A DNA stretch of 55,122 bases from the IMG/VR virus record IMGVR_UViG_3300048800_000064, positions 1 to 55,122 of that record; one strand, given 5' to 3'. This stretch comes from a virus (Duplodnaviria; Caudoviricetes). The notes beneath the pieces are model-generated. The model worked only from the letters and a program-made list of their open reading frames with translations, made no database searches and was not told where the DNA came from. Within the stretch, counting starts at the first letter, position 1. The number at the start of each line of letters is the position of its first letter. The position numbers were made by a program, and so were the translations under genes. Shown here piece after piece: positions 9,641 to 27,720 of this stretch.

Positions 9641-9940
9641 GTGCCCCTGACTCCGTACTCAGACCGAGCTCGACGCGAAGGACTCTGCTGTGTGGTGAAC
9701 TGCGGCCGGCCACGCAAGCCCGGAGTCTACTGGCGCTGCGCGGAGCATGTCCGCGCCAACCGCCGTGACTACTACCTGCGCTGGAAGCACAAGAAGTTCG
9801 GCTTTGGTCCCAGGGAGAGACCGTTCCATGAACTCTGCATCGCCGTGGCGCTTGAGGCTGCCTACACGAGCGGCTATCGGCATGGAGCAGTTGCCCTCTC
9901 GGACCACCACCGACGTGCCCGCGCGGCTGAGGCTCAGTGA
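9641..9940 (+). CDS. Hypothetical Zn-finger protein
   Basis: GLCCVVNCGRPRKPGVYWRCAEH. Confidence 0.55.
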   Translation: MPLTPYSDRARREGLCCVVNCGRPRKPGVYWRCAEHVRANRRDYYLRWKHKKFGFGPRERPFHELCIAVALEAAYTSGYRHGAVALSDHHRRARAAEAQ

Positions 9941-10851
9941 ACCGAGGACGGCCTCAGCTTCCGCCTCTCCGTCGGATGACCCGCACCCGGCTCGAGGCCG
10001 ATATCCCGTCATCCGAGAAGGACGGCAAGCCTTGGAGAATAACCGTGCTCCGCGCAATCCGACCCGATGGCAGCCCAGTGTGGCCGGCCCGTATCCCGAT
10101 GGAGTTCTACCAAATGCTGTGGGACTCGGGCGGCTCGGCCTTGTTCAGCGCGGTCCAGATGCAGGACCCAAGCGGCATATCCGGCAACATCTTCAACCCC
10201 GAGGATTTCCGGAGCTTCTGCTGGCCCGACTACGTCGACCCCGACACCGGCTGGGACGCCCAGGAGCTGCTGGCCCGGGGCCGCGTCCAGGCGATCGCAC
10301 CCGACCGTCGCGAGATGTTCTCGATCCAGGCCCACGACCTGGCGGTCAAGAAGGTCGAAACCGCGGACTACTACGCCCGATGGAACGCCTACGGCAGCCG
10401 CGATCACCGCATCTTCGTCGACTGGGTCTACCAGGCTCGCCTCAATTTCCGGGAGCGCATCGCCGACATCACCAAGGGCGCCGACAAGTACCACCCGATC
10501 GCCATCGGCATCGAGTCCAACGCCTTCCAGTCCGACACCTTCGAGGAGGTGCGCCGGCTGAGCTTCCATCCCTACGTGGAGGTGCCGTCGACCCTCGACA
10601 AGGTGATGCGCGCCCGGCCTCTGGCGGCCCGGTACGAGAGCGGCGATGTCTACCACCGGTACAACGCCAAGTGGAGGCCGATCTACGAGGCGCAGCTGGG
10701 GGCGTTCCCTGGTGGAGCCCACGACGACATGGTCGACGCGGCCTCGCTTGGCTACTGGCTGCTGCAGCACAAGGCCGGGACGACGAGCGACGACATCGAC
10801 GTGCTGAACCGGGCGATGCGGCGAGAGTCGCTGATCCCTGGCGCCTTCTGA
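9937..10851 (+). CDS. Terminase large subunit, lid plus RNaseH-like nuclease half (Terminase_6C-like)
   Basis: VWPARIP..FSAVQMQDP, QAHDLA..TADY, IGIESNAFQ, DKVMRA, FPGGAHDDMVDA. Confidence 0.9.
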   Translation: MNRGRPQLPPLRRMTRTRLEADIPSSEKDGKPWRITVLRAIRPDGSPVWPARIPMEFYQMLWDSGGSALFSAVQMQDPSGISGNIFNPEDFRSFCWPDYVDPDTGWDAQELLARGRVQAIAPDRREMFSIQAHDLAVKKVETADYYARWNAYGSRDHRIFVDWVYQARLNFRERIADITKGADKYHPIAIGIESNAFQSDTFEEVRRLSFHPYVEVPSTLDKVMRARPLAARYESGDVYHRYNAKWRPIYEAQLGAFPGGAHDDMVDAASLGYWLLQHKAGTTSDDIDVLNRAMRRESLIPGAF

Positions 10852-11997: not shown

Positions 11998-12000
11998 CCG

Positions 12001-12026
12001 GGGCAACTCGGACACCCCGTCACCAT
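12001..12026 (+). promoter_or_regulatory. Late-type promoter GGGCAA-N14-CACCAT (portal operon)
   Basis: Recurring motif. Confidence 0.65.
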
Positions 12027-12062
12027 CCGGACAAATCCGGACAGTAGGCGAGGTGCAGAGCC

Positions 12063-13859
12063 ATCGGTAAGGCCAAGGGACCAACAGAAGGGCGCGCGGG
12101 CGGCCGAGCGGAGACTGACGCCGGATTCCCGGTAGGCAAGGCCCCCAACCCGCTCGAGCTCGGCGTCTCGGGCACCAGGATCATCGCTGGTCTCACCTAC
12201 GAGGAGACCAACACCCAGCTCCAGGGCATGAACGGGTACCGCAAGTACCAGGAGATGCGCTTCGACCCGACCTGCGCCGCGGTCCTCAAGGCAATCGAGT
12301 ATCCGATCCGTGCTGCCCGCCATTTTGTCGAGCCCGCCTCTGACGATCCCAAGGACGTGCAGAAGGCGGATCACGTGCATGACCAGCTTTTCGAATTTGG
12401 TAGCCAAACAATGGACGACGTCCTCCGGCTCGCGTTCGGCAAGCTGACCTGGGGCTTCTCGTGGTCGGAGATCTGCTACTCGATGATCGAGAGCGGGCCC
12501 TGGGCGGGGAAGTGGGGCTGGGACAAGTTCGCCTGGCGGTCCCCCGCCACCAAGTGGCGCTGGAACATGGGCGAGGTCGACGGCCGGCAGGAGCTCGTCA
12601 GCGTCACCCAGCTGGCGCCGCCGTTCTACCAGGCGATCGACATCCCGCGCGACAAACTGCTGCTCTGGGTCAATGACCAGGAGGGCGACAACTACGACGG
12701 CATCAGCACCCTGCGCGCCGCCTACAAGCCCTACGTCTATCGCGACGTGCTGTACCGGATCCAGGCGATCGGCCTGCAGCGCAGCTACATGGGCATTCCG
12801 CGGGCCAAGGTGCCGGCGCAGTGGAGCACTGAGCTGAAGACCCTCATCGCCCAGATCCTCGAGAACCTGCGGACCGACGAGACCGCCGGCTTTGCCGTCC
12901 CCGAGGACGTCGACATCGATTTCATCTTCAACCGGCTCAACGGCGACGCCATGCAGAAGGCGATCGCCCACCATGACGTCCAGATCGTGGCCCAGGCCCT
13001 GGCCGACTTCCTCAAGCTCGGCACTGGCGACGTCGGCTCCTTTGCGCTCTCGAGCGACAAGAGCGAGCTGTTCCTGTACGCCCTGAACGGTCACGCCAAC
13101 TACTTCGACCAGGTCCTCAACCTCTACCCGGGGATCCCGCTGCTGATCACCTACAACTTCGCCGACGCGGACCCGGCCAAGATGCCACGGCTGGTGCATG
13201 GCGACATCGGGCAGCGGGCGCTGGACAAGCTCGGGCGCACCCTGGCAGCGCTTACGACGACCGGCTTCCTGACGCCCGACGACCCCACCGAAGACAAGCT
13301 GCGGCAGATGCTGGACTTCCCCGAGCGCGACAGCAGCATCACCGACCGGGCGCTGGCCGATCTGGTGGAGGAGGTTTTCCCGCGGCAGGCTGATCGCGGT
13401 CGGAGCAGTACTGACTCGGGACCCCGCCTGCGCCCCAAAACGCTGGTCGTGCCGCCGGACGGGCTGCCGACGCCGGTTGGCCAGGGTCCCGATGCCGGGC
13501 TGCCAGCGCAGATGTCGGAGCGCAAGGCCGAGGCCTTCCGGGAGCTGCAGCGCATGGTCGCCCAGCGTCCCTTCCGGCGGTCTACCAACATCCGCACCGA
13601 CCGGGCCCGGATCCAGATGAGCGAGATGTTGATTGACGCCCTCGATGATGCCCGGAGCGGCATCGGCGCCAGGCCTGATCGGCCTTCGATCCGGATGGCG
13701 AAGGCGCGCACGCCCTACAAGGTGCTGCCGGCTCCCGCGGTGACTGTTCCGCGGCCACAGCGAGCACTAAGCCAGCGGCCGGCGACCGCGGAGCGGGTGC
13801 GGCCACATGCGGCGCGGATCCGCCAGGCGCTCTACCACGTTGGCAGCCGCGGCCGCTGA
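12063..13859 (+). CDS. Portal protein (DUF935/Mu gp29-like); first ATG at 12228, probable ATC start at 12063
   Basis: ELGVSGTRI..EETNTQLQG..YQEMRFD, IPRDKLLL..QEGDNYDGISTLRAAYKPY, GSFALS; position after terL. Confidence 0.9.
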   Translation: MGKAKGPTEGRAGGRAETDAGFPVGKAPNPLELGVSGTRIIAGLTYEETNTQLQGMNGYRKYQEMRFDPTCAAVLKAIEYPIRAARHFVEPASDDPKDVQKADHVHDQLFEFGSQTMDDVLRLAFGKLTWGFSWSEICYSMIESGPWAGKWGWDKFAWRSPATKWRWNMGEVDGRQELVSVTQLAPPFYQAIDIPRDKLLLWVNDQEGDNYDGISTLRAAYKPYVYRDVLYRIQAIGLQRSYMGIPRAKVPAQWSTELKTLIAQILENLRTDETAGFAVPEDVDIDFIFNRLNGDAMQKAIAHHDVQIVAQALADFLKLGTGDVGSFALSSDKSELFLYALNGHANYFDQVLNLYPGIPLLITYNFADADPAKMPRLVHGDIGQRALDKLGRTLAALTTTGFLTPDDPTEDKLRQMLDFPERDSSITDRALADLVEEVFPRQADRGRSSTDSGPRLRPKTLVVPPDGLPTPVGQGPDAGLPAQMSERKAEAFRELQRMVAQRPFRRSTNIRTDRARIQMSEMLIDALDDARSGIGARPDRPSIRMAKARTPYKVLPAPAVTVPRPQRALSQRPATAERVRPHAARIRQALYHVGSRGR

Positions 13860-13871
13860 GGCCGATGCTGA

Positions 13872-15587
13872 ATGAAGACTGCCGCCACCCCTGAGGCGAA
13901 GAAGAAGGCGCTCCACCTCGTCAAAAACGAGGGCCTATCGATCCGAGCCGCAGCAGCAGCCGCCGGCGTCCCGCATTCCTCCCTTCACGATTGGATTCGC
14001 CGTGGCGAGCCCGCCTACGACACCGAGCCAACCCCCGCCCCGAGCGTGGCCGACACCGAGGACGAGGCCGCCCGCCGGATGGAGCAGGCGTCTCAGACCG
14101 GCACCGAGGCCGACCCCACCATGGGGATGCCGCCGGCGCTCAAGCCCGGTGAGGAGCAGGGAACACCGCCGACCAACGCGGACCTCGAGGACAAGCAGCC
14201 CGACCTAACCACGCTGGGCGCGCTGTACCGCTACGTGAACCTGACGGCCAACGACGTCGCTCACCACGTGGCCGTCGAGGCCGCCCGGCGCATCAGTCCC
14301 AACTTCGACATCTCCACCGACCACCACCGGCGGATCCGCAACGCGCTGGGCAAAGGTGACGAGCCAGTCAGGTTGTCGGAGAAGGCGCGCCGCCAGGTCC
14401 CGGGCAACAAGGGCGTCATGATCGCCCTGATCCCGCCGGGGACGGCTGCGCGCCAGCTCGCCGAGGTCGGCGATGAACCCGTGGATCAGATCCACATGAC
14501 ACTCGCCTACCTGGGCAAGTCGGACGAGTACGAGCCAGCGCAGTTGGACGAGCTTCGGGCGGTGCTGGCGCAGTTCGCGTGGAGCGAGCGGCCGATCAGC
14601 TGCCAGGCCTCGGGGACGGGCCGGTTCCGCGCCGGCGGCGACGCCAAGGACGCTTGGTATTGCTCGGTCGACGCCCCGGCGCTGCCCGGGATGAGGGAGC
14701 GGATGATGCAGGCGCTGTGGGCCGCCGGCTTCTACCCCAGCCAGCTGCACGGCTTCTCCCCGCACATGACCATGGAGTACCTCGAGCGGGACGCGCCCAC
14801 GCCGGACGACAAGGATGTCCCGACACCGGCATGGATCTCAGAGGCGCTCACGGTCGCGGTCGACGAGGACTGGGATGACCTGCCGTTCCGACAGCGGATG
14901 TCGGAGCAACTCGACTTCGCGAACATCGCTCCGCCGAGCTACGTGCAGGACACCTACGCCCGCTGGGAGATGACCGACGCGCAGGCGAGAACCCTGGCGG
15001 ACGACATCTACGCGACCCGGCTTGACGGCTACGCCGCGGCGATCAATGACCAACTGCAGGCGCTCGGTCGGCCGATGGTCGCGTCGGTCAGCCACCCCGA
15101 TGTGCTCGCGCAGTTGCGCCAGGAGGCTAACACCTCTTCGGCTCAAATCCTGCAGACCTACAACCGTGATCTGGCCAGTGAGGTTTACACCCAGTACATC
15201 GAGCTGAGGGGCACCCTCGGCCGACAAACCTCCGAATACCAACTGGACCAGGCGACCCAGACATGGATCGACGACCGGGCTGAATGGAAAGCGAAGCAGG
15301 TTGCCGCCAACGAATTCGGTGCTGCTTACAGCGCTGGCCTCGGCGACTTCCTCAGCCAGAACTCGCTGAATCCGATGGGTCACGTCGAGCCGCCAGACGC
15401 TCAATGCACCATCTGCCAGGAAGCGATCGATATGGGCACAGCACCGGCGGATGAACTGAACAGCATCATTCCGCCGCACATTGGCTGCTCGCACGAGGTC
15501 GTCCTCCATTGGGAGGAGGGAGCCGTTGATCCGGGCGCCGACGTATGGACGGGCCAGGAGTCCCCAATGGGCGAGGCGGCGGCTTAG
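13872..15587 (+). CDS. Head morphogenesis (MuF-like) protein fused to an N-terminal HTH and a central 2H phosphoesterase (Acb1-like) domain
   Basis: HTH GLSIRAAAAAAGVPHSSLHDW; two HxT motifs HMTLAY (14493) and HMTMEY (14763); MuF C-terminus CTIC...IPPHIGCSH. Confidence 0.85.
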   Translation: MKTAATPEAKKKALHLVKNEGLSIRAAAAAAGVPHSSLHDWIRRGEPAYDTEPTPAPSVADTEDEAARRMEQASQTGTEADPTMGMPPALKPGEEQGTPPTNADLEDKQPDLTTLGALYRYVNLTANDVAHHVAVEAARRISPNFDISTDHHRRIRNALGKGDEPVRLSEKARRQVPGNKGVMIALIPPGTAARQLAEVGDEPVDQIHMTLAYLGKSDEYEPAQLDELRAVLAQFAWSERPISCQASGTGRFRAGGDAKDAWYCSVDAPALPGMRERMMQALWAAGFYPSQLHGFSPHMTMEYLERDAPTPDDKDVPTPAWISEALTVAVDEDWDDLPFRQRMSEQLDFANIAPPSYVQDTYARWEMTDAQARTLADDIYATRLDGYAAAINDQLQALGRPMVASVSHPDVLAQLRQEANTSSAQILQTYNRDLASEVYTQYIELRGTLGRQTSEYQLDQATQTWIDDRAEWKAKQVAANEFGAAYSAGLGDFLSQNSLNPMGHVEPPDAQCTICQEAIDMGTAPADELNSIIPPHIGCSHEVVLHWEEGAVDPGADVWTGQESPMGEAAA

Positions 15588-15612
15588 GGCAACGACCGCC
15601 GGGATGTAGCGT
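15587..15612 (+). promoter_or_regulatory. Late-type promoter GGGCAA-N14-TAGCGT with no ORF downstream
   Basis: Recurring motif followed by a long hairpin. Confidence 0.6.
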
Positions 15613-15618
15613 TCAGGG

Positions 15619-15700
15619 CATCCCCTCCCTTCCTTAGTCCCGAAGGTTTGCGCCGAGTCCTCCTCGACGTTGTCGCAGCGGCGCAGACCTCTCGGGATCT
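15619..15700 (+). ncRNA. Candidate small RNA: long hairpin with exposed anti-Shine-Dalgarno tracts
   Basis: TCCCGA-AGGTTTGCGCCG pairs with CGGCGCAGACCT-C-TCGGGA; TCCCCTCCCTTCCTT 5' tail and GTCCTCCT in the loop. Confidence 0.45.
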
Positions 15701-15850
15701 GCGGGGCAACTCGCTTTTCGTCATGAACTCCCACCTTTGGGGAAGGAGTTTGGTCGTTGTCCCTGGCGCTAAGCTGCACTCTGCAGTCCATCCGGGACCA
15801 TTGGCTCCATGACAAGAGCCCTGGCTCGCACGTTGCGCGCCGCTACAGCA
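15700..15850 (-). ncRNA. TnpB omegaRNA scaffold and guide (guide GAAAAGCGAGTTGCCCCGCA from 15719 downward)
   Basis: Overlaps the tnpB 3' end and right-end hairpin; 5' boundary approximate. Confidence 0.6.
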
Positions 15851-16881
15851 TCAGCCGGGCCAGCAAACCCGCACTCGATGCATCGGAACTCCCCGCGACT
15901 GGGGCGGTTCCGCTTGTCTACGCGCCCACACTCAGGGCAGGTGCGCGAGGTGTTCCGAGGATCCACCAGGACTACCGGGACTCCGGCTCCCTGTGCCTTG
16001 TAGGTAAGGAAGGATCGAAGCTGGGCGAAAGTCCAGTTGGAGTGTCGAGCCCGCTGGCGCCTCTTAACCGTGACGCGGTCGCGGATGCCTTTTAGATCCT
16101 CGATGGCAATCCCGCGACCGCTGCCTTGGGCGACGGCTACGACCCTCTTCGAGATGATGTGGTTGGTGTCTGCCTGGTAGCGACGCTGGCGCCCGGCGAT
16201 CCTGCGGAGTTTGCGCCGCGCCGAGTGGGTGCCCTTGCGCTGGAGATTACGCCTGATATGTACGTGGATGCGTCGCTTGCGCTCGACGGCGCCGCCCGTG
16301 TGGACGGTGCCATCGGAGTCCACCGCCAGGTTCACGATGCCCAGATCGATTCCCAGGTAGTCCTGCACCCTTAGGGGCGGCGGCTCGGGCAATTCCAACG
16401 TCAGATACAGGTAGAACTCGCCCTTGCGGTAGATCAGGTCGGCCTGGCCTCTCCGTTTGTCGACGCGACCCTCCTGGTACGCACCGAGCGTGACCGGGAT
16501 CGTGAGCCGACCCACCAGCGTCGACAAACTCACCGCCTCGACGCCCCTCCAGCTCATGATGCGCTCGTCATAGCTGATGGCGCCATGGGAGCGAAAGCGA
16601 GGCTGGATGGACTTGTCGCGCTTGTAGGCATCAACCACCTTCCAGATGGCGTGGATAGTCATCTGAGCGGAGAGCCCGAAACGCTCCCGCACCTCGTAGT
16701 AGAGGCGCTTCTGGAGGGTCACTCGGTTGGCACACTGGGCCTTGAAGGCAGCCGCGGCGATCCAGTCGCAGGCGGCGTTGAAGCGCTCGATGGTCGCTAG
16801 GAGAGCCGCAGCTTGCTCTGAGGTTGGGGCCAGCTTCACCGGCAAGGTACGCTTCACTCCCTGTAAGTTTACACGAGACGA
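15720..16881 (-). mobile_element. TnpB-only IS200/IS605 (IS1341-like) element
   Basis: Putative TAM TTGAC (minus strand 16886-16882); right-end hairpin AACTCC..GGAGTT then CATGAC; GTCATG pseudoknot partner at 15813-15808; no tnpA. Confidence 0.75.
15769..16857 (-). CDS. tnpB: RNA-guided endonuclease TnpB (362 aa)
   Basis: VKRTLPVKLAPT N-terminus; RuvC GIDLG, IAIEDL, ADAVAARN; Zn finger CPECG/CIECG; only the 3' part of the 884-aa track ORF is real. Confidence 0.95.
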   Translation of the reverse strand: MKRTLPVKLAPTSEQAAALLATIERFNAACDWIAAAAFKAQCANRVTLQKRLYYEVRERFGLSAQMTIHAIWKVVDAYKRDKSIQPRFRSHGAISYDERIMSWRGVEAVSLSTLVGRLTIPVTLGAYQEGRVDKRRGQADLIYRKGEFYLYLTLELPEPPPLRVQDYLGIDLGIVNLAVDSDGTVHTGGAVERKRRIHVHIRRNLQRKGTHSARRKLRRIAGRQRRYQADTNHIISKRVVAVAQGSGRGIAIEDLKGIRDRVTVKRRQRARHSNWTFAQLRSFLTYKAQGAGVPVVLVDPRNTSRTCPECGRVDKRNRPSRGEFRCIECGFAGPADAVAARNVRARALVMEPMVPDGLQSAA

Positions 16882-16908
16882 GTCAATCATGGCAGGGCCG
16901 ATGAGGGA

Positions 16909-16934
16909 GGGCAGTCTCGCTACGCTGCCAGTCT
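16909..16934 (+). promoter_or_regulatory. Late-type promoter GGGCAG-N14-CAGTCT, leaderless start 7 nt downstream
   Basis: Motif variant directly before GTG 16942, which has no SD. Confidence 0.6.
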
Positions 16935-16941
16935 TACGACC

Positions 16942-18831
16942 GTGAGAACCCCAGCTGTCATAGCTCTTGATCTCAACGTTGAGGCGTTTCGTCTTGGCGA
17001 GAGCAAGCAGCTGCCCTTCGCGAAGGTCGGCGAGTGGGACTTCCCCGAGGACTACGGCGAGTTCAATGTCACGCCCGACCACCTCGACGCGATCGAGAAA
17101 CATTTCCGGGCCGACGTCCGTCGCGTGGAGGTCCCGCTGCTCAACGAGGAGCACGGACCCGGCGCGGTCGGCTGGATCACCGACTTCGTTCGCGTAGCCC
17201 CCGATCGACTGGACGCGATCGTTGAGCTCAACTCCCGCGGGGAGCAGGCACTGGCCAATGACGAGTACCGGCGTGTCAGCCCAGAGATCCTGCGCGACTA
17301 CTTCGACGCCGAGACGGGCGAGTCCTACAGCATGGTGGCGGCTGGGTTGGCGCTGACCACGGCTCCCCGGCTGAAGGCACTGGACCGGATCGCCGCCTCT
17401 GAGCATCCGCGGATCCTCGCCTTTGCCGAGTCCCCCAGCGAGCTCACCACGGTCGGCAGCCATATCGACGGATCGATGGGAAACACCAGCGTTGCCTATG
17501 CCATCCCCGAGCTGAAGCGTCTGCCCATCAACAGCAAGGCCCAGGTCAAGGGGTCTGTGGCCCGCTTCGCGAAGGTCCGCAACCAGGACGGCACGCCGCT
17601 CACTGAAACGCAGCGCACCGCAGCGTGGGAAAAGATCGCTGCCGCCGCGAAGAAGTTTGGCATCGACGTGCCGTCTCGCTACAGCGAACTGCGGCTCAGC
17701 CCCCAACAGACGGCCGAGTATCTGATGGCTGAGGCGGTGAAGCACACCCACGCCAAGCGTGGCGGCGGCAAGACGACACACGAACACGACGACGCCACCA
17801 AGGGACACGGCCACGACGGCCTGCTGCCCGCCTTCAACATGGCCGAGGGCGACGACGTCGGCGACGGCGACCAGGACTTCGATGACCAGCCGTGCCCGAG
17901 CTGCGGCGCCGAGGACATGGACGTGATCTCCATGGACCTGCGCTGCCCGTCGTGCGGCACCCACGCCAGCTTCCACGCACCCTCGCAGTTGTTCGCGGAG
18001 ATAAGCGGCAAGCAGCGCGACGCCCTGGATGCCGGCGCCTTCGCCGTTCCGGGCAAGCGGCAGCTGCCCATCCAGGACGCTGCCCACGTGCGCAATGCCA
18101 TCGCTCGATTCAGCCAGACGAAGGACTTGACACCTGAGGAAAAGGCCGCTGCCAAAACGCGAATCCAAGCAGCCGCGAAGACGTTTGGTATCAACGTCGG
18201 AGACGATTTCAGTGAAATCGCCGGGGCAACTTTGCGGCCCGGTTTCAATGACGCCGTGCCTGACGACACCACACCGAAGCCGGAACCCACTCCGACACCA
18301 GCGCCGGAACCGACTCCCGAGCCCGCGCCTGAGCCCGCGCCTGCACCGGCCCCCGAGCCCGCGCCTGCACCTGAGGCTTCGGCCCAGAAGCCAGCGGACT
18401 TCGCCGAGTTGAGCACCATGCACATGGCCGAGGTCGCTGAGAACAAGAAGCTCAAGGCCAGGGTCCAGGAGCTCAGCGAGAACATGGCCCGTCAGGAGAC
18501 CGCGCAGAAGATGGCGGTGGTCGCCGAGCGGATCGACGGACTGGTTCGTGAGGGAAAGATCACCCCCGCCGAGGCCGAGACCTTCAAGGAAAACACCCGG
18601 CTCGTCAAGCTCTCCGAAGACTCCTGGCCCCTTGACGTTCTCGCTGGCCGCAAGCCTGTGGTCGAGATGCGCGAGCGCGGCACCGACGGGATCGGGGCTG
18701 AGGCGATTGACGACGGCACCCGGCTCGCCGAAGCCGCCAAGGTCCTGATGTCCGAGAAGGCCAAGGGCGGCACCAAGATCACCATGAAGGAAGCGATCCT
18801 CGAAGTCGCTCGCCTGGGGTACAGGGGCTAA
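16942..18831 (+). CDS. Mu-like prohead protease fused to two DUF6582-like domains, His-rich and Zn-ribbon modules, and scaffold
   Basis: NEEH..AVGWI, EYRRVSPE, GLALTTAPRLK; KRLPIN..ARF..AAAKKFGID and QLPIQDAAHVRNAIARF..AAAKTFGIN; C-terminal coiled coil and GKITPAE. Confidence 0.85.
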   Translation: MRTPAVIALDLNVEAFRLGESKQLPFAKVGEWDFPEDYGEFNVTPDHLDAIEKHFRADVRRVEVPLLNEEHGPGAVGWITDFVRVAPDRLDAIVELNSRGEQALANDEYRRVSPEILRDYFDAETGESYSMVAAGLALTTAPRLKALDRIAASEHPRILAFAESPSELTTVGSHIDGSMGNTSVAYAIPELKRLPINSKAQVKGSVARFAKVRNQDGTPLTETQRTAAWEKIAAAAKKFGIDVPSRYSELRLSPQQTAEYLMAEAVKHTHAKRGGGKTTHEHDDATKGHGHDGLLPAFNMAEGDDVGDGDQDFDDQPCPSCGAEDMDVISMDLRCPSCGTHASFHAPSQLFAEISGKQRDALDAGAFAVPGKRQLPIQDAAHVRNAIARFSQTKDLTPEEKAAAKTRIQAAAKTFGINVGDDFSEIAGATLRPGFNDAVPDDTTPKPEPTPTPAPEPTPEPAPEPAPAPAPEPAPAPEASAQKPADFAELSTMHMAEVAENKKLKARVQELSENMARQETAQKMAVVAERIDGLVREGKITPAEAETFKENTRLVKLSEDSWPLDVLAGRKPVVEMRERGTDGIGAEAIDDGTRLAEAAKVLMSEKAKGGTKITMKEAILEVARLGYRG

Positions 18832-19271
18832 TGGCCGGCGAAATCGAAGGCGCGATAGCCGACCAGACCTACCGGAACGTCGCCCTAACGAACTTCCTGC
18901 CCAACACCTGCGTCGACGTCGACCCTGCCAACAGCGACGCCATCAACACCGCCTGCCTGTACGTCGCCTCCGGCTTCCCCTGCGAGACGCTGGGCGTCGT
19001 CTACGACCAGGCCAAGCTCGACCCCTCCGGCACCCCGATCAAGAACTCGGGTGTCGCCGTCCGCCACTGGGGCATCGTTCGAGTCGTCGTGACCGGCGCT
19101 GTCACCCCGGGCGCCTACGTGTCCGTCGCCAACGCCTTGGGGCAGTGCGCATCGCAGGCGCTCTCAACCGCTGGCCAGCTGCTGAAGCCGGTCGTTGGCC
19201 GGGCGCTCACCTCCGCTGCCGCACTCAACGATCAGCCGTTGGTGCTGCTCATGATCGGCTCGAGGGTCTGA
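18831..19271 (+). CDS. Capsid decoration/cement protein (DUF2190-like)
   Basis: VAVRHWGIVRV..GAVTPG...VVGRALTSA; lies between scaffold and MCP. Confidence 0.7.
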   Translation: MAGEIEGAIADQTYRNVALTNFLPNTCVDVDPANSDAINTACLYVASGFPCETLGVVYDQAKLDPSGTPIKNSGVAVRHWGIVRVVVTGAVTPGAYVSVANALGQCASQALSTAGQLLKPVVGRALTSAAALNDQPLVLLMIGSRV

Positions 19272-19274
19272 GAA

Positions 19275-20219
19275 ATGCCTGACGTCTTCATCCCACAGGT
19301 CCACATCGACCAGGCTCTGACCCAGATCAGCATCGCCTACGAGCAGGACGACCTGGTCGGCGACAAGATCTTCCCAACCGTCCCCGTGGACAAGCGAAGC
19401 GATCGCTACTTCATCTACGACCGGATCGCCTTCAAGAAGCTCGACGACCTCGTCCGGCCCGGCAGCACTGCTCCCGAGTGGACGCGTACGCTGTCGACTG
19501 GCAGCTACAACGCCGAGCGTCATGCCCAGCGCCTGCTGGTGACCGACGCCGAGAAGCGCCTCTCCGACCTGCCGCTGGCCCCACAGGCCGACGCCACCGA
19601 GATGGTCACCGAGAGAGTGCAGAACCAGCGCGAGTTCCGCCAGCTCGCCATTGCCTCCGACCCCGCTCAGGTCACCCAGAACATCGCGCTCTCGGGGACC
19701 TCGCAGTGGTCGGACTACACCAACAGCACCCCCCTGGTGGTGATCAAGAACGCCAAGCTGGCGGTCCGACTCGGCATCCTCAAGCGGGCGAACATGTTCA
19801 CCGCCAGCTACGAGGTCGCACAAACCCTGGCCGACCATCCGTCGATCAAGGACATGCTCAAGTACACCGACCCCAACCTGGTTTCGGAGACCGGACTGCC
19901 GGCGATCATTCGCGGCCTCCGCGTCAACGAGGCGGCCGCCTTCATCGACATCGCCAACCCCGGCCAGGCGCCGACCATGGCTTCGGCCTTCGGCAAGAAC
20001 GCGCTGATCCACTACACCAGCCCCCGTATCGGGCTGAAGATGATCACCTTCGGGCTGACCATGGAGGCTCCCGACGACACCACCGGCGCCCGCGGCTTCG
20101 CGGTCGAGATCTACCGCAACGCTGACAAGCACGGCGACTACGTCGAGGTGGCCAACACCTATGACGAGGTCGTGGTTGCTCCTGGCGGTGGGTATCTCCT
20201 CCTGACCGCTGTCGCCTGA
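19275..20219 (+). CDS. Major capsid protein
   Basis: HIDQALTQISIAY..IFPTVPVDKRS..QWSDYTNSTP..TFGLT..GYLLLTAVA. Confidence 0.9.
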   Translation: MPDVFIPQVHIDQALTQISIAYEQDDLVGDKIFPTVPVDKRSDRYFIYDRIAFKKLDDLVRPGSTAPEWTRTLSTGSYNAERHAQRLLVTDAEKRLSDLPLAPQADATEMVTERVQNQREFRQLAIASDPAQVTQNIALSGTSQWSDYTNSTPLVVIKNAKLAVRLGILKRANMFTASYEVAQTLADHPSIKDMLKYTDPNLVSETGLPAIIRGLRVNEAAAFIDIANPGQAPTMASAFGKNALIHYTSPRIGLKMITFGLTMEAPDDTTGARGFAVEIYRNADKHGDYVEVANTYDEVVVAPGGGYLLLTAVA

Positions 20220-20229
20220 GTCTGATCTG

Positions 20230-20883
20230 ATGCCAGCCCAGGCAGCCACAGCCGAGCAGACCAAGGTCAAGATCCAGCGGCTCACCGCCGACGACGTCGA
20301 GCGGTACGAGGACGAGCCCGACGACGACGGCTGGGACGGTACCCTCTTCGAGGCCCGCCTCACCCGTCCGATCATGCGTAACCAGCAGATCGTCACCCCC
20401 AAGATGACCGAGACCAAGCCGCTGTACTTCAGGGCCGCTCGGGTCAAAGAGCGGTGGGTTGACGAGGATGGCAAGGTTCACCAGTACCGCTGGGTGGGTC
20501 CTGAGGCCGAGCATCTCCGAGATCTGATCGCAGTTGGAGTCATCGCGAACACCCAGGAGTCGAACGCGCGCTCTCGCCGGCAGGCCGTCATCGATCACGA
20601 GCGCGGAGTCGACGGAAACGAGGACCACGGTCCCCTTCCTCACCTCAGCGAGGCCACACCGATCGCGGTCAAGCGTCGGTGGGAGAAGCCGCTCGCCGGC
20701 GGCCCGAAGGAAGTCATGCGCAAGGAACTCCAGGAATCCCGTGAGGGCATCGCCGAGCTCCGCCAGTACGCCGGGGCCGAGGCTCCGGGCAGCGCGCGCG
20801 CGAAGTATCTCGGCGAGGTCGAGCCTGCGGCTGAGCCGGGAGCCGAGGCCACGCCAGAGGGCGCCACAGGCTCCAAGGAGTAG
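20230..20883 (+). CDS. Hypothetical protein (head region)
   Basis: Long ORF in the operon with phage-like codon usage. Confidence 0.65.
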   Translation: MPAQAATAEQTKVKIQRLTADDVERYEDEPDDDGWDGTLFEARLTRPIMRNQQIVTPKMTETKPLYFRAARVKERWVDEDGKVHQYRWVGPEAEHLRDLIAVGVIANTQESNARSRRQAVIDHERGVDGNEDHGPLPHLSEATPIAVKRRWEKPLAGGPKEVMRKELQESREGIAELRQYAGAEAPGSARAKYLGEVEPAAEPGAEATPEGATGSKE

Positions 20884-24865: not shown

Positions 24866-25561
24866 ATGGCCGCGCTTGTCGGCTCTGCGGGTGCGGTAGC
24901 CGCCGCCAACTCCTCGGTCACGCCCGCCTTCGGGCAGGCCACGACCGCTGGGAATCTACTCGTCGCCCAGGTCGCCCATAGCGGCACCACTGCGATCGCT
25001 TGCTCGGACGGCACCTGGACCTCGGCCGGTCAGGCGGTCCAGGGCACCGTCGCTCGCGCTGCCCTGTTCTACAAGCAGAATTGCGGGGCCGGTGAGACCG
25101 CGCCCACGTTCACCGGCGGCGCGGTCACCATCGCCGTAGTCCTCTCCGAGTGGTCGGGGGTCGCCACCGCTACGCCGCTGGATCAGACCGGCACCGCCAC
25201 CGGCACCGCCACACCACTCACCGTAACGGCATCCGGGACCGATGGTGGGACGGGTCGACTGGTCATTGCTGCCTACGGCTGGCGTACCAGCGCCGCGGTC
25301 GTGGCCAGCGAGACGGATAGCACCAACTTCGCCCAACTGGTCGCGGACTCAGCCAGTCGCGCCAACCACCTCGGCAGCCCCTACAGCGTCACCGTCGCCA
25401 CCGGCAGCGCGGCCGATGCCGATACCGAGACGGAAAGCGTTGGGACCGTGTCGAGTGTGGCGGCGGTCATCGCCAGCTTCGCGCCAGCGGGGGCTGCTGT
25501 CCCTCCTCCAAGCCCAGGCAACTTTGGTGGATTCTTCGATAGAGCCTTCCCGGGGGCCTGA
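24866..25561 (+). CDS. Virion beta-sandwich protein, paralogue of 24127-24864
   Basis: TTAGNLLVAQV..WT..EWSGVAT..PLDQ; C-terminal PGNFGG motif. Confidence 0.7.
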   Translation: MAALVGSAGAVAAANSSVTPAFGQATTAGNLLVAQVAHSGTTAIACSDGTWTSAGQAVQGTVARAALFYKQNCGAGETAPTFTGGAVTIAVVLSEWSGVATATPLDQTGTATGTATPLTVTASGTDGGTGRLVIAAYGWRTSAAVVASETDSTNFAQLVADSASRANHLGSPYSVTVATGSAADADTETESVGTVSSVAAVIASFAPAGAAVPPPSPGNFGGFFDRAFPGA

Positions 25562-27720
25562 TGCCTTTCAATAGCGGTGCTGGGGGGAGCTTCACTGGCG
25601 ACCAGCAGAAGCGGGTTCGCAGCCCACATCAGAGCTTCCGCCCGCCGCTGGGCAGCGTTTTCAGTGGCCCCAACAGCTACACCGAAGGCACCGCCGACAC
25701 TCTTGGGCTTGCGGATGCGAGTAGCCGGACCGTCGCCTATGCCCGCTCTGTTTCAGAAACGGTGGGGCTTGCGGATGCGTCGTCTGGAGCGCAGGTTCTC
25801 AGCCGCAGCACTAGCGACGTCATCGGTGTTGCTGAGGCGCTCTCTCGCAGTCAGGCTTTGGGCAGGGCTACCGCAGAAACAGTAGGGCTGGCGGATGCGA
25901 CTACATGCGTCCGAACCCTAAGCCGGGGCACGGCTGATGCCCTTGGCCTCGCGGATGCTGCCACTCGGACGGCGTCGGTTCTGAGGGGCACGTCGGACAC
26001 AGCAGGGCTAAGCGGGGCTGTGACGCGCACCGTGGCGGCTGCACGGGCTACTGCCGACACGATGGGCGTCGCGGATGCCGTGACCCGGGCGCCGTCCTAT
26101 ACGCGGACTCTCGGCGACCAGGTGGGTCTGAGCGAGGCTCTGAGCCGCGTCGTCACGTACACCCGGGCCAGTGCCGACGCCGCGGGCCTCGCTGACGCCA
26201 GCAGTCGCGCGCAGACGCTGGGGCGCGGCGGCAGCGATGCGATGGGACTCAGCGATGCTCTCACGCGCACGTTCGCCGCAGCCCGCAGCAGCGCTGACGC
26301 GCTTGGTCTTGCCGGGGCTGTGACGCGCACCGTGGCCTTGACACGCGCTGTCGCTGAAGCGCTCGCACTGGCCGAGGCGGTGAGCCGCCAAGTCTCCTAT
26401 GTCAGAGCGCTGACCGAAGCCGTTGGACTGAGCGATCAGACCGCCCATGCCCAGGTACTGGCGCGAGCTACCGCTGACGGGATCGGCTGCAGTGAGGCGG
26501 TAGTGCGCGTGGCAGCCTACGCGCGAGCCGTCGCGGAAACACTGGCCGTGGCCGGCAGCGTAGCTCGCACAGCCACTTATGGACGGACGGCCGCTGACGC
26601 GGTGGGCCTGGCGGAAGCGTCGAGTCGGCTCGCCACCTACGGGCGCATGATCGCCGACGCCATCGCCATCGCCGAGGCAGTATCAGCGCTGAAGGGAGCG
26701 GCGCGCTCGACGAGCGATGGGCTGGGCCTTGCCGATGCGGCTGCGCGAACTGCTGCGGTCATCCGTGCTGTCGCTGCCACGATTGGCCTGAGTGAGCAGG
26801 CAGCCCGCCTGACCGTCTACGGTCGCGCTACAGCCGATCAGGCGGGTCTTGCCGACAGCCAGAGCCGGATAGCCAGTTACGCCCGCGCCAGCGCCGACGT
26901 AGTAGGTCTCAACGGCGCCACCACCCGGACACTTGCTGGTGTTCGAAACGGCACCGAGGTCATCGGCCTGGGCGAGGCACTGTCCCGCGCTTACACCGGG
27001 GCACGAGCAACCTCGGATGGGGCGGGCTTGGCTGACGGGGTGGGCCGGACGGCCAGTCTCGCTCGCGGTGGCGCCGACGGGCTGGGCCTCAGCGGGGTAG
27101 CCTCCGGGACGCGCTCAGCGATCCGCAGCAACGCGGACACGATTGGCTTGGGCGAGGCGCTGTCGCGGAGCTACGCAGGGATCCGCGCGACCTCCGATGG
27201 TCTCGGCCTAGCCGACCTGGCCGCCCGAAGCGGGGCTCATGCCCGGACAAGTTCGGACAGCGCGGGCCTTGCGGACGCCTCATCTCGCGCCCAGGCGCTC
27301 GCGCGCGTGATAGCGGAGACTGTCGCGCTGGGCGACTCTGGGGCTCGCTCACTGGCTCTGGGCCGGAGTGCTGCCGACACGATCGGCCTGACGGAGGGGG
27401 CCACGAGATCGTGGACGACGGCGCGAATGCTCGGCGACACCCTCGGGCTGGGCGAGGCCATCCAGCGGAGCCTGACGCGCTCCAGGACAGTTGCTGAGGC
27501 GATCTCACTGGTCGAGGTTGGCTTCTGGACGTACCCGGTCATCGTGGGAACCGCTGGCCTAAAGCCGGGCAACAAGGCGACTGCGGGCGCGCTGCCGGGG
27601 AACTCGGCCACTCCCGCCTCCGCTCCGACGAACAAGGGCACCCCTGGCCTGCTGCCCGGCAACAACGCCTCAACCACAGCCAAGCCGACCAACGCCGCCG
27701 TGACCAAGTCCTTGTTCTGA
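25561..27720 (+). CDS. Long repeat fibre protein (about 31 x 20-aa repeats)
   Basis: Consensus xxRxxxDxxGLADAxxRxxx; C-terminal 10-aa PGN/PTN repeats. Confidence 0.8.
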   Translation: MPFNSGAGGSFTGDQQKRVRSPHQSFRPPLGSVFSGPNSYTEGTADTLGLADASSRTVAYARSVSETVGLADASSGAQVLSRSTSDVIGVAEALSRSQALGRATAETVGLADATTCVRTLSRGTADALGLADAATRTASVLRGTSDTAGLSGAVTRTVAAARATADTMGVADAVTRAPSYTRTLGDQVGLSEALSRVVTYTRASADAAGLADASSRAQTLGRGGSDAMGLSDALTRTFAAARSSADALGLAGAVTRTVALTRAVAEALALAEAVSRQVSYVRALTEAVGLSDQTAHAQVLARATADGIGCSEAVVRVAAYARAVAETLAVAGSVARTATYGRTAADAVGLAEASSRLATYGRMIADAIAIAEAVSALKGAARSTSDGLGLADAAARTAAVIRAVAATIGLSEQAARLTVYGRATADQAGLADSQSRIASYARASADVVGLNGATTRTLAGVRNGTEVIGLGEALSRAYTGARATSDGAGLADGVGRTASLARGGADGLGLSGVASGTRSAIRSNADTIGLGEALSRSYAGIRATSDGLGLADLAARSGAHARTSSDSAGLADASSRAQALARVIAETVALGDSGARSLALGRSAADTIGLTEGATRSWTTARMLGDTLGLGEAIQRSLTRSRTVAEAISLVEVGFWTYPVIVGTAGLKPGNKATAGALPGNSATPASAPTNKGTPGLLPGNNASTTAKPTNAAVTKSLF

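Follow-up and report, generated by a model that had tools for sequence, protein, structure and literature searches.

The head genes of this uncultivated phage raise the question of whether a short tripeptide, recurring in several structural proteins, acts as a code for their proteolytic maturation. The window, that is, the whole stretch of 55,122 nucleotides analyzed, is a 55-kb record with a tape-measure gene, and its initial annotation read the head proteins as polyproteins punctuated by [FLM][AS]E sites. The motif is enriched, position-specific, conserved and linked to the clade of this phage's protease, and it is restricted to linkers and tails of head proteins. It is probably the cleavage code of the phage's own prohead protease; from the pattern of sites, we infer that cleavage occurs there, that it follows the Glu, and in what order the events would proceed. 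If the proteins are cut as proposed, small domains and an enzyme would be freed inside the capsid.

The 629-aa protease–scaffold protein contains 11 strict [FLM][AS]E sites compared with 1.31 expected (sd 1.11), and none of 5000 composition-preserving shuffles reached 11 (0/5000). The non-strict sites ASE152 and YSE247 come in addition, while residues 1–151 hold zero [FLM][AS]E sites. This recount agrees with the initial annotation, both in the number of sites past the catalytic domain and in the absence of the motif from the protease domain and the major capsid protein (0 in both). Genes outside positions 12000–18900, a crude, GC3-based background set, have 17 sites in 11,264 aa (1.5 per 1000 aa), with 14.2 expected. 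By themselves, the window portal (2 sites vs 0.54 expected, P=0.10) and the neighboring 571-aa head protein (3 vs 0.97, P=0.07) are not significant, and their support comes from homologues. As had been cautioned for external fibre repeats, a repeat protein (ORF 25561–27720) has four L-type motifs, spaced by 80, 80 and 60 aa; these are probably meaningless, and the motif by itself is therefore no predictor of a substrate.

An exhaustive HMMER search gave 2529 matches at E≤1e-3, the best 150 of which were analyzed as cluster representatives at 50% identity, 120 of them with a protease domain. These 120 homologues (from the best 150 of 2529), none of which had served to define the motif, contain 702 sites against 131.5 expected, a 5.3-fold enrichment of the kind that the initial annotation had proposed to look for, in a total that conserved columns enter repeatedly since the homologues share ancestry; 76/120 are individually significant (Poisson P<0.01). 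Stand-alone scaffold homologues (n=6) have 33 sites vs 4.3 expected, and the 23 matches with neither a protease nor a scaffold domain have 26 vs 20.1. In an unbiased scan of all tripeptides in the homologues, LSE, FSE, FAE, MAE, MSE, ASE and LAE ranked near the top, alongside conserved words from the catalytic domain. The homologues favor F (6.6x), M (6.6x), L (4.4x), A (2.4x) and Y (1.9x) and disfavor I (0.6x) and V (0.8x) at P3, with enrichment of S (7.4x) and A (4.3x) at P2, and of E (5.3x) and D (1.7x) at P1; reversed or permuted motifs are not enriched (97–119 observed vs 131 expected). Site density is 1.32 per 100 aa outside the protease domain vs 0.36 inside (3.7x). The more distant the protease domain, the lower the enrichment (7.3x for the 20 nearest homologues, 2.8x for the 20 farthest), as predicted by a clade-specific protease specificity.

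Within the protease–scaffold protein, 8/13 window sites recur at the corresponding alignment position, each in 8–12 of 13 homologues that are 30–40% identical, and E154, E163 and E264 are nearly invariant although the surrounding linkers vary. Pfam identifies Mu-like_Pro (37.5 bits, cut-off 25.2, covering only model positions 61–184 of 330) and two DUF6582 stretches, and PHROGs match the C-terminal scaffold part of 'head maturation protease' families; together with the CxxC pairs and the His-rich stretch read in the translation, this bears out in broad terms the module order given initially. Residues H71, S113, P114 and E115 are invariant in an alignment of 15 sequences, and the protease domain is modelled at a pLDDT of about 70–88, followed by a stretch (aa 151–185) below 50. 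At its C-terminal border, E154, A160 and E163 are nearly invariant, the ASE position being kept in 10/13 and the FAE position in 8/13 distant homologues.

The initial claim that sites fall at module borders holds for the conserved protease/linker and linker/scaffold borders, but YSE247 (0/12) and MAE300 (0/11) have no counterpart in homologues; at the end of the second module, FSE423 is present in the window but reads FHE in the closest relative, P0001 (629 aa, 84–86% identical). In P0075 and P0078, the N-terminal DUF6582 has a DDFSE-type ending. The His-rich HTHAK..GGG follows MAE directly in P0097 and after four residues in P0096, and HTHAKxGGG-like stretches stand at other positions in P0087, P0093 and P0082. 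Pfam gave no match over the Cys-rich stretch (aa 303–353) of the window protein; Zn-ribbon and DnaJ-CXXCXGXG matches were found in homologues, and the insert itself is common to the window protein and P0001 only, with FAE kept in the latter. The fold model of module 2 (pLDDT 70) had no PDB match. A strict site lies at −6 to +25 residues from 29/67 DUF6582 ends, a weak test, the chance estimate being about 34% given how densely sites occur on average outside the protease domain; in non-protease control proteins, the figure is 3/26. The proline-rich linker is predicted below pLDDT 50 at aa 425–450 and 472–484, and the scaffolding domain as long helices. All six scaffold sites are at the start, at the end or within confidently predicted helices, and are kept in 11/13 (FAE487), 10/13 (MAE495), 8/13 (LSE511), 12/13 (LSE557), 3/13 (LAE595) and 12/13 (MSE603) homologues; in the structure model, 7/13 sites are in or border low-confidence linker segments. 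The cleavage-code half of the initial proposal is strongly supported by the homologue tests, although not every border site is conserved.

The portal consists of a core (~aa 1–380) and a C-terminal tail (aa 381–543), in which the two MSE sites noted initially were recounted; its ORF (12228–13859) has no other strict site. Across 39 portal homologues, enrichment is seen in the C-terminal tails (83 sites vs 9.9 expected, 8.4x) and not in the cores (29 vs 25.2). In the L004 and L005 portals, 5/5 and 5/6 strict sites cluster at aa 511–654, between the portal core and an extra domain of ~310 aa. Homology to these relatives extends in frame upstream of ATG 12228; the start given before, 12063, has no canonical start codon.

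The 571-aa protein comprises an N-terminal HTH-like region, a linker, a 2H phosphoesterase insert and a conserved C-terminal core with CxxC and HxxCxH; Pfam finds 2_5_RNA_ligase2 (E 1.2e-9) and weak HTH matches. Its earlier label, MuF, lacks backing, as Pfam found no Phage_Mu_F, PHROGs gave no supporting match and no profile match to Mu gpF was obtained. The reported sites on both sides of the 2H domain are confirmed and conserved: at LSE168, L004/L005 read MSE and P0223 (54% identical) has the same VRLSEKA, while M343, S344 and E345 are all invariant in P0223. The 2H domain is an insertion relative to L004/L005, where the core begins just past their single MSE site. Its PDB sequence matches are a 2'-5' RNA ligase (1iuh, E 1.7e-4) and an RNA 2',3'-cyclic phosphodiesterase (5h7e, E 7.5e-4), and in these alignments HMTL and PHMTM stand at the H-x-T motifs. 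The LAE196 inside this domain, flagged earlier as a caveat, is unconserved and probably no functional site. The gap that separates the 571-aa and protease genes contains a TnpB-like gene, which is outside the motif system; Rfam gave no match on 15300–17300. Downstream, homologues of the 146-aa protein in L003, L006 and L007 (46–50% identical) have 0 sites each, as do the capsid proteins of L003, L004, L005, L006 (partial) and L007.

Table 1. Motif sites and head-gene features of the window.
Feature	Positions	Strand	Basis
Portal, 543 aa from first canonical start	12228..13859	+	Pfam Portal_Mu E 1.7e-33; phrog_113 E 2e-59
Portal tail site MSE429-431	13512..13520	+	Aligns with LAE in L004/L005; E431 invariant
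Portal tail site MSE464-466	13617..13625	+	Aligns with ATE in L004/L005; E466 invariant
Portal-adjacent head protein, 571 aa	13872..15587	+	Homologues in L004, L005, P0223
Site LSE168-170, upstream flank of 2H insert	14373..14381	+	S169, E170 invariant vs L004/L005
2H (LigT-like) phosphoesterase domain, aa 171-342, both H-x-T motifs	14382..14897	+	PDB sequence matches
LAE196-198, within 2H domain	14457..14465	+	MAA in P0223
Site MSE343-345, downstream flank of 2H insert, before conserved core	14898..14906	+	Invariant in P0223
TnpB-like gene, 373 aa from ATG 16890	15769..16890	-	Pfam Cas12f1-like_TNB E 3.3e-20, OrfB_IS605 E 6.5e-7
Protease–scaffold fusion, 629 aa	16942..18831	+	Pfam, PHROGs, homologue P0001
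Strict sites of fusion, first four	FAE161, MAE262, MAE300, FAE351	+	
Strict sites of fusion, remaining seven	FSE423, FAE487, MAE495, LSE511, LSE557, LAE595, MSE603	+	
Prohead protease domain, ~aa 20-151, His71 + Ser113 (YRRVSPE)	16999..17394	+	Pfam Mu-like_Pro
Protease C-terminal border, IAASE(152-154)...LAFAE(161-163)	17395..17430	+	Conserved residues in alignment
Module 1, DUF6582-like, aa 164-249, ends in YSE247-249	17431..17688	+	Pfam DUF6582, alignment
Site MAE262-264 (LMAE), before His-rich stretch	17725..17733	+	E264 nearly invariant; kept 9/13
His-rich stretch, aa 265-302, ends in MAE300-302	17734..17847	+	Read in translation
Acidic stretch and two CxxC pairs, putative Zn ribbon, aa 303-353, ends FAE351-353	17848..18000	+	Translation
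Module 2, DUF6582, aa 354-425, ends DDFSE423-425	18001..18216	+	Pfam best stretch 365-422
Proline-rich linker, aa 426-486	18217..18399	+	Read in translation
Scaffolding domain, aa 487-629, six sites	18400..18831	+	phrog_976 / 3894 / 2976 C-terminal parts
146-aa head protein, 0 motif sites	18831..19271	+	Homologues next to capsid gene
Major capsid protein, 314 aa, 0 motif sites	19275..20219	+	phrog_1005 E 2.6e-59

In the processing that we propose, the motif would read [F/L/M, less often A/Y]-[S/A, less often G/N/T]-Glu as P3-P2-P1, with the cut after Glu, and the cutting enzyme would be the Mu-type Ser/His protease domain, with its assemblin fold, at the N-terminus of the 629-aa protein. Through its C-terminal scaffolding domain, this protein would enter the procapsid in full length, along with the portal and the 571-aa protein. 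The protease would then release itself at IAASE/LAFAE and cut the scaffolding domain five or six times into small peptides; next, the portal tail would be trimmed at two places, and the 571-aa protein cut on either side of its 2H insert. Finally, the linker passengers, namely the two DUF6582 domains, the His-rich stretch and the Cys-rich stretch, would be separated. Candidate passengers are located in the protease–scaffold protein, in the portal tail of relatives and in the 571-aa protein.

Such cuts may, however, serve only to clear the prohead, with the scaffold, linker modules and portal tail leaving or being degraded and nothing being delivered to the host. This reading, to which we give slightly less than an even chance, opposes the cargo part of the initial proposal and not the cleavage code. 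The best-conserved sites are those that would free the protease and shred the scaffold, DUF6582 is present in 47/78 of the longest protease homologues, a frequency that suits an assembly role, and P0001 has lost the site after its second DUF6582; propeptides are generally expected to leave the head, according to PMC10052503. On the other hand, module content and order are shuffled among homologues, which is unusual for an assembly-critical part, and NUDIX, 2H and inorganic pyrophosphatase domains each occur in a single homologue (1/78 longest; NUDIX in P0208 and 2H in P0165, with 1 strict site each). Retention of both H-x-T motifs in the 2H insert and the extra domain behind the portal-tail site cluster in relatives also speak against clearance alone. 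It is unlikely that the motif stays uncut and is instead a short docking motif for the capsid protein, portal or a chaperone during assembly: it is found in each of the three proteins whose entry into the prohead is required, and the six scaffold sites are in predicted helices, but its occurrence follows the protease clade, it marks the C-terminal border of the protease itself at two nearly invariant positions, a Glu-ending tripeptide with hydrophobic P3 fits the substrate pattern known for related proteases, and removal of a portal tail is documented for phage Mu (PMC11915804). Composition or helical periodicity of Ala/Glu/Leu-rich scaffolds, or post hoc motif choice, is a very improbable source of the enrichment, for although the motif was defined after looking and the scaffold is a helical region with much A, E and L, this is already contradicted by the unbiased tripeptide scan in other proteins, by the position specificity (I/V depleted and F/M enriched at P3, reversed motif at expectation), by the shuffles and by the enrichment of non-helical portal tails.

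Read as a cleavage code, the motif has counterparts in several known systems. In T4, maturation removes short targeting peptides from internal proteins and breaks the scaffold down into peptides. PMC12991175 describes that T4 gp21 cuts after Glu in I/LxE, and the likeness extends to a hydrophobic P3 and to many sites in core and scaffold proteins. Unlike T4, the window protein matches no T4-type protease family in Pfam, its motif favors F/M/L and disfavors I at P3 and limits P2 to S/A, protease, passengers and scaffold form one polypeptide, and the capsid protein lacks a site. SPN3US gp245, according to PMC10052503, cuts after A-X-E, that is, with Glu at P1, cuts itself, and makes several cuts in portal and internal-head propeptides; these giant phages, myoviruses of 240 kb, have some 50 head proteins and Ala at P3, whereas the window record has 55 kb, an aromatic or large aliphatic P3 and passengers within the protease–scaffold linker. 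Phage Mu has a protease and portal of the same Pfam families, and its gpI/gpZ likewise combine protease and scaffold in one reading frame (Mu record notes). In the virion structure, its portal, gpH, lacks the last 124 residues, and the authors of PMC11915804 attribute this to protease I, a removal of the C-terminal tail like that proposed here. Mu gpI has 0 [FLM][AS]E sites, and the code is therefore not shared throughout the Pfam family; gpI instead contains LSA six times vs 0.25 expected, and the Mu portal tail contains AALSAE once. Passengers of the DUF6582, Cys-rich and His-rich kinds are all absent from Mu.

In fold, the window protease domain best matches herpesvirus proteases of the assemblin–scaffold (pUL26-type) kind (2wpo, 1o6e; Foldseek prob 0.99), with E-values of only about 0.01 from a multi-domain model. 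The herpesvirus enzymes are made as fusions with the scaffold, from which they free themselves, but they cut after Ala, not Glu. Head components also carry other proteins into capsids, as in the P1 Dar proteins and in toxins fused to MuF. DarB of phage P1 has a capsid localisation signal, as PMC9024508 describes. The P1 Dar and MuF-toxin systems share with the present proposal the idea that head-assembly proteins bring enzymes into the capsid, by attachment or by targeting; the candidate passengers of the window differ in being embedded between predicted protease sites.

The protease–scaffold protein of 629 aa encoded in the window (55,122 bases, 66% G+C) is densely studded with the tripeptide [FLM][AS]E, hereafter the strict site, and the motif is a real feature of the head proteins, beyond chance. 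As counted in the initial annotation, this protein carries 11 strict sites plus ASE152 and YSE247 (numbers denote the first residue), with none in residues 1–151. Measured against the proteome background, this amounts to 17.5 sites per 1000 aa, compared with 1.5 in the rest of the window. Shuffled versions of the protein contained 1.31 ± 1.11 sites, and 11 were reached in 0 of 5000 shuffles; the rest of the window, for which the background gene set was called crudely by third-position G+C, holds 17 sites in 11,264 aa vs. 14.2 expected. The other placements noted initially were also recovered: two MSE sites, both within the tail of the portal; LSE168 and MSE343 on either side of the 2H domain of the 571-aa protein, with LAE196 inside it; and no motif in the capsid protein, nor in the 146-aa protein. 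Neither the portal (P=0.10) nor the 571-aa protein (P=0.07) reaches significance when its count is taken singly. The caveat that fibre repeats also contain the motif is borne out by a 719-aa repeat protein with four L-type sites, LSE or LAE at residues 190, 270, 350 and 410. Their spacing of 80, 80 and 60 aa indicates internal repeats of ~80 aa, and the third-position G+C of this gene (0.73) is below that of the head genes.

Features of the window discussed in the text
Feature	Positions	Strand	Matches
304-aa ORF	9937–10851		C-terminal (nuclease) part only of large-terminase families, phrog_38 positions 467–715 of 760
Open frame before portal gene	12048–12227
Mu-type portal gene	12228–13859	+	Portal_Mu, E 1.7e-33
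571-aa gene	13872–15587	+	Weak N-terminal HTH matches; 2H (LigT-like) phosphoesterase domain
TnpB-like gene	15769–16890	-	Cas12f1-like TNB domain, E 3.3e-20; OrfB_IS605, E 6.5e-7
Protease–scaffold gene, 629 aa	16942–18831	+
His-rich stretch	17734–17847
146-aa gene	18831–19271	+
Major capsid gene	19275–20219	+	phrog_1005
719-aa repeat protein gene	25561–27720

The 629-aa protein consists of a protease domain, a linker and a helical C-terminal part, and its linker contains two DUF6582 stretches, a His-rich stretch, two CxxC pairs and a proline-rich stretch. It matches the Mu-like_Pro model (PF10123) with 37.5 bits vs. a cut-off of 25.2 (E 2.6e-9), residues 73–213 falling on model positions 61–184 of 330. 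H71 and S113 are invariant in an alignment of 15 sequences, and herpesvirus proteases rank first among the PDB structures that the protease model resembles in fold (prob 0.99, with an E of only ~0.01); the domain has an assemblin-type fold with a conserved His/Ser pair, the putative catalytic residues. Residues 448–623 match the C-terminal parts of PHROG "head maturation protease" families, and long helices are predicted at residues 486–608 in the structure model; a scaffolding domain lies C-terminal to the protease in the same reading frame, as is characteristic of Mu-like prohead proteases. A cursory look for a nested start like that of Mu gpZ revealed no clear ribosome-binding site before M493 or M495. 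Membership in the T4 gp21 family was not found, as Pfam at E<=0.01 returned only DUF6582, Mu-like_Pro and a low-complexity match. Within the same region, the TnpB-like gene stands alone and on the opposite strand in the 1.35 kb that separate the 571-aa gene from the protease gene, where G+C is slightly lower, and an Rfam scan of 15300–17300 gave no RNA match. Further upstream, the terminase gene may be split or interrupted, its ATPase part not having been located.

Because the motif was picked after looking at the sequence of the window, its occurrence in other proteins is decisive. An exhaustive HMMER search yielded 2529 proteins at E<=1e-3 (representatives of 50%-identity clusters), the best 150 of which were analysed, with the near-identical P0001, the closest protease–scaffold relative, left out of the class counts. 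Among the 120 proteins with a protease domain, 702 sites were observed vs. 131.5 expected, a 5.3x enrichment; in six stand-alone scaffold homologues the figures were 33 and 4.3 (7.7x), and in 23 proteins with neither domain, matched only through DUF6582 or proline-rich stretches, 26 and 20.1 (1.3x). The motif count is individually significant in 76 of the 120, and site density is 3.7 times higher outside the protease domain than inside it. Enrichment declines with distance of the protease domain from that of the window, from 7.3x in the nearest 20 proteins to 2.8x in the farthest 20. In an unbiased scan of all tripeptides in these 120 proteins, the motif words rank near the top alongside conserved catalytic-domain words, both the S-type (observed v expected: LSE 170 v 24.7, FSE 92 v 10.7, MSE 61 v 8.1, ASE 151 v 37.6) and the A-type (FAE 120 v 21.1, MAE 101 v 16.3, LAE 158 v 50.4).

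Two trivial origins of this signal were considered. An artefact of composition or of helical segments is contradicted by the shuffles, the unbiased scan and the position specificity: at the first position (P3) F and M are enriched 6.6x each, L 4.4x, A 2.4x and Y 1.9x, with I at 0.6x and V at 0.8x; at P2, S reaches 7.4x and A 4.3x; and at P1, E reaches 5.3x and D 1.7x. Such an artefact is rejected because L separates from I and V, and because reversal abolishes the enrichment, reversed or permuted motifs being found 97–119 times v 131 expected, i.e., at or below expectation. The idea that M[AS]E words mark internal translation starts fails since F- and L-type sites are enriched equally. A search for other repeated tripeptides in 18 homologues (the 17 with <=2 strict sites, plus P0206 and P0189 and minus P0105) gave nothing clear.

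The location of the sites was followed in an alignment with 13 homologues of 30–40% identity, in which a strict or loose motif was counted as kept. Most sites are kept in the majority: LSE557 and MSE603 in 12 of 13 each, FAE487 in 11, ASE152 and MAE495 in 10, MAE262 in 9, and FAE161 and LSE511 in 8; LAE595 is kept in 3 of 13, YSE247 in 0 of 12 and MAE300 in 0 of 11. The glutamates E154, E163 and E264 are nearly invariant amid poorly conserved linkers. FAE351 and FSE423 belong to an insert common only to P0001, which keeps the former and has FHE at the latter. In the structure model of the 629-aa protein (mean pLDDT 60), sites up to residue 425 lie within or border on segments of pLDDT <50, and the scaffold sites lie at the start, at the end or inside of confident helices. 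The proposal that sites mark module borders is therefore upheld by the alignment for the protease–linker border, the linker–scaffold border and several points in the scaffold, but is not well supported for every border; the test at DUF6582 ends is weak: a strict site lies within -6 to +25 of 29 of 67 ends, where chance, estimated from mean site density, would give ~34%. In DUF6582 proteins without a protease, a strict site is near 3 of 26 domain ends, and the ending of stand-alone DUF6582 proteins differs from the fused DDFSE form.

Independent evidence comes from the portal. In 39 homologues, with the window and the 91%-identical P0224 left out, portal cores contain 29 sites vs. 25.2 expected and C-terminal tails 83 vs. 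9.9; sites are absent in three homologues with tails of only 45–58 aa. The portals of two related viral records, L004 and L005, are ~960 aa long, and all of their strict sites but one (5 of 5 in L004, 5 of 6 in L005) lie between residues 511 and 654, where they separate the core from an extra ~310-aa domain. The counterpart of MSE429 of the window is LAE in both, that of MSE464 is ATE, and the glutamate is invariant at each position. The extra domain of L004 (3460–4395), which also follows the motif cluster in the homologues P0233, P0234 and P0237, has no Pfam or PDB sequence match; by eye it resembles two tandem HAD-like halves, and the ESM Atlas returned small viral proteins and HAD-IIIC/PNKP-type phosphatases (score 0.91–0.92), a likeness that we treat as a lead only. 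The portal frame of the window is open upstream of its first ATG, GTG or TTG, and the translation of this stretch resembles the N-terminal ~35 residues of the L004 and L005 portals, so that the true start is probably a non-canonical codon upstream of 12228, or else the sequence contains an error.

The 571-aa gene lies directly downstream of the portal gene, as do its counterparts in L004 and L005. Its product had been labelled MuF, a name that is not supported: Phage_Mu_F (PF04233) was matched neither by the whole protein at E<=0.01 nor by the C-terminal core at E<=5, and hhalign of our alignment A3 against Mu gpF gave a probability of 0.1. It is therefore termed here the portal-adjacent head protein. 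A CxxC and a P-x-H-x-x-C-x-H motif are conserved across the three sequences, and this C-terminal Cys/His motif may resemble the MuF signature. The homologue in L004 and L005 is 429 aa long and lacks the 2H domain; its single MSE site aligns with LSE168, with S169 and E170 invariant. In the window, the 2H domain is a ~170-aa insertion right after LSE168, closed by MSE343 and followed by the conserved core. A 54%-identical homologue that also has the domain, P0223, retains VRLSEKA and RMSE exactly, and has MAA in place of the internal LAE196. The insert belongs to the 2H superfamily, as it matches Pfam 2_5_RNA_ligase2 (E 1.2e-9), its HMTL and PHMTM align with the H-x-T motifs of the LigT-type structures 1iuh and 5h7e, and both motifs are retained in P0223. 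Homologues of the portal and the 571-aa protein are absent from the record of L003 and from the upstream regions of L006–L008, and PADLOC assigned no families to the 571-aa protein, the protease–scaffold protein and the L004 portal.

Further modules occur in the protease homologues. Among the 78 longest of the 120, Pfam identified Mu-like_Pro in 62, DUF6582 in 47, ChaB in 6, several zinc-ribbon or DnaJ-type cysteine modules, and NUDIX (P0208), 2H (P0165), inorganic pyrophosphatase and Phage_Mu_F (P0206) once each; modules are placed before or after the protease and in different orders. P0208 and P0165 have one strict site each and, being among the few-site homologues, may use another code. The two DUF6582 (PF20223) stretches of the window score 71.4 bits vs. 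a cut-off of 27.3. The DUF6582 fold model (pLDDT 70) has no PDB match at E<=0.001, and in BFVD it matches only other unannotated DUF6582-bearing phage proteins; DUF6582-like folds (28–34% identity, prob 0.99–1.0, E 0.01–0.1) are embedded there in proteins that bear the names chromatin-remodelling ATPase, prohead protease and Dps-like DNA-binding protein. DUF6582 may thus be a general phage module, and a capsid-targeting role is conceivable; no paper naming it was found in the mainly open-access literature covered. The His-rich stretch, HTHAK-x-GGG-xx-TH-x-H, recurs in P0082, P0087, P0093, P0096 and P0097, N-terminally or internally and often directly behind a MAE site; most other homologues have a Cys-rich module, C-x-YQPP...CPGYT...CNGY, in its place.

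The motif is thus enriched, position-specific, conserved, confined in location and tied to the protease clade, and it is probably the code by which the phage's prohead protease recognises its substrates. Cleavage at the motif itself would follow from this distribution, and a cut after Glu is suggested by analogy with T4 gp21, reported to cut at I/LxE (PMC12991175), and SPN3US gp245, reported to cut at A-X-E (PMC10052503). The protease would release itself by cleavage at the motif, shred the scaffold, trim the portal tail, and set free the 2H domain and the linker modules. The phage Mu virion structure lacks the last 124 portal residues, which its authors state confirms cleavage by protease I (PMC11915804).

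The fate of the released pieces is less certain. Propeptides are generally expected to exit the head, according to one report (PMC10052503), and we consider it rather doubtful that the pieces are retained and injected as cargo, even if an intact enzyme between conserved sites and shuffled passenger modules fit such a role. It is similarly a speculative proposal that the head-assembly proteins serve as polyprotein carriers whose passengers are freed by the protease in the capsid and enter the host with the DNA. The linker of the protease–scaffold protein, the tail of the portal and the portal-adjacent protein would then each carry interchangeable passengers bounded by sites. Those of the window would comprise the 2H phosphoesterase, DUF6582 domains and metal-binding modules rich in Cys or His; a HAD-like tandem domain would take this part in some relatives, and NUDIX or pyrophosphatase domains in more distant members. 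Hydrolases of nucleotides or RNA ends would be present ahead of phage gene expression, and could, for example, degrade the cyclic nucleotides of defence signalling or repair cleaved tRNAs. If so, the strategy of internal proteins, hitherto described in T4 and giant phages, would extend to a tailed phage of moderate size, and cargo would be predictable from genomes through a readable sequence code; this would offer a simple, general loading route for counter-defence enzymes and a usable handle for protein targeting into capsids.

Irrespective of this, an [F/M/L]-[S/A]-Glu specificity is predicted from sequence alone for the whole clade and is replicated in independent proteins. Head proteins become readable maps of predicted mature termini, discarded parts and released embedded domains, such as the 2H phosphoesterase, with its catalytic motifs intact here, and, in relatives, the HAD-like domain that follows the portal tail. 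Protease specificity is also relevant to host sensing: according to a recent report, cleavage by a prohead protease activates CBASS enzymes (PMC12991175).

The clade is large (2529 HMMER proteins) and almost wholly uncultivated: tblastn against 50,697 deposited phage genomes gave only three records, of Helicobacter pullorum phage, at 31% identity over 21% of the query. A word-based protein search gave one true relative, P0001, most other matches having no BLASTP alignment to the query. No match was obtained in a DNA search of the phage collection with 12000–20300 or in a single-protein search of viral contigs, no relative in a scan of genome contigs, and nothing relevant in a PDB sequence search with our profile A1. 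To our knowledge, the specificity of the prohead protease has been established in only a handful of model phages, and a description of the cleavage specificity of a Mu-type protease was not found in the mainly open-access literature covered. A three-residue motif cut after Glu, the processing of head proteins at several sites, portal-tail removal and cargo borne by head proteins are already known. New are a defined code for this Mu-type clade, the difference of the clade from Mu itself, and passenger modules flanked by sites in three places: the linker of the protease–scaffold protein, the tail of the portal and the protein encoded next to it. Unlike the 629-aa protein, Mu gpI (AF083977 9057–10142) has no [FLM][AS]E sites; it contains LSA six times vs. 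0.25 expected, a count reached in none of 5000 shuffles, and five of the six lie in its scaffold half; the Mu portal (AF083977 5555–7093) has AALSAE once, in the C-terminal tail reported missing from virions. LSA may be the cleavage code of Mu, whose P1 residue would then be Ala, as it is for herpesvirus proteases.
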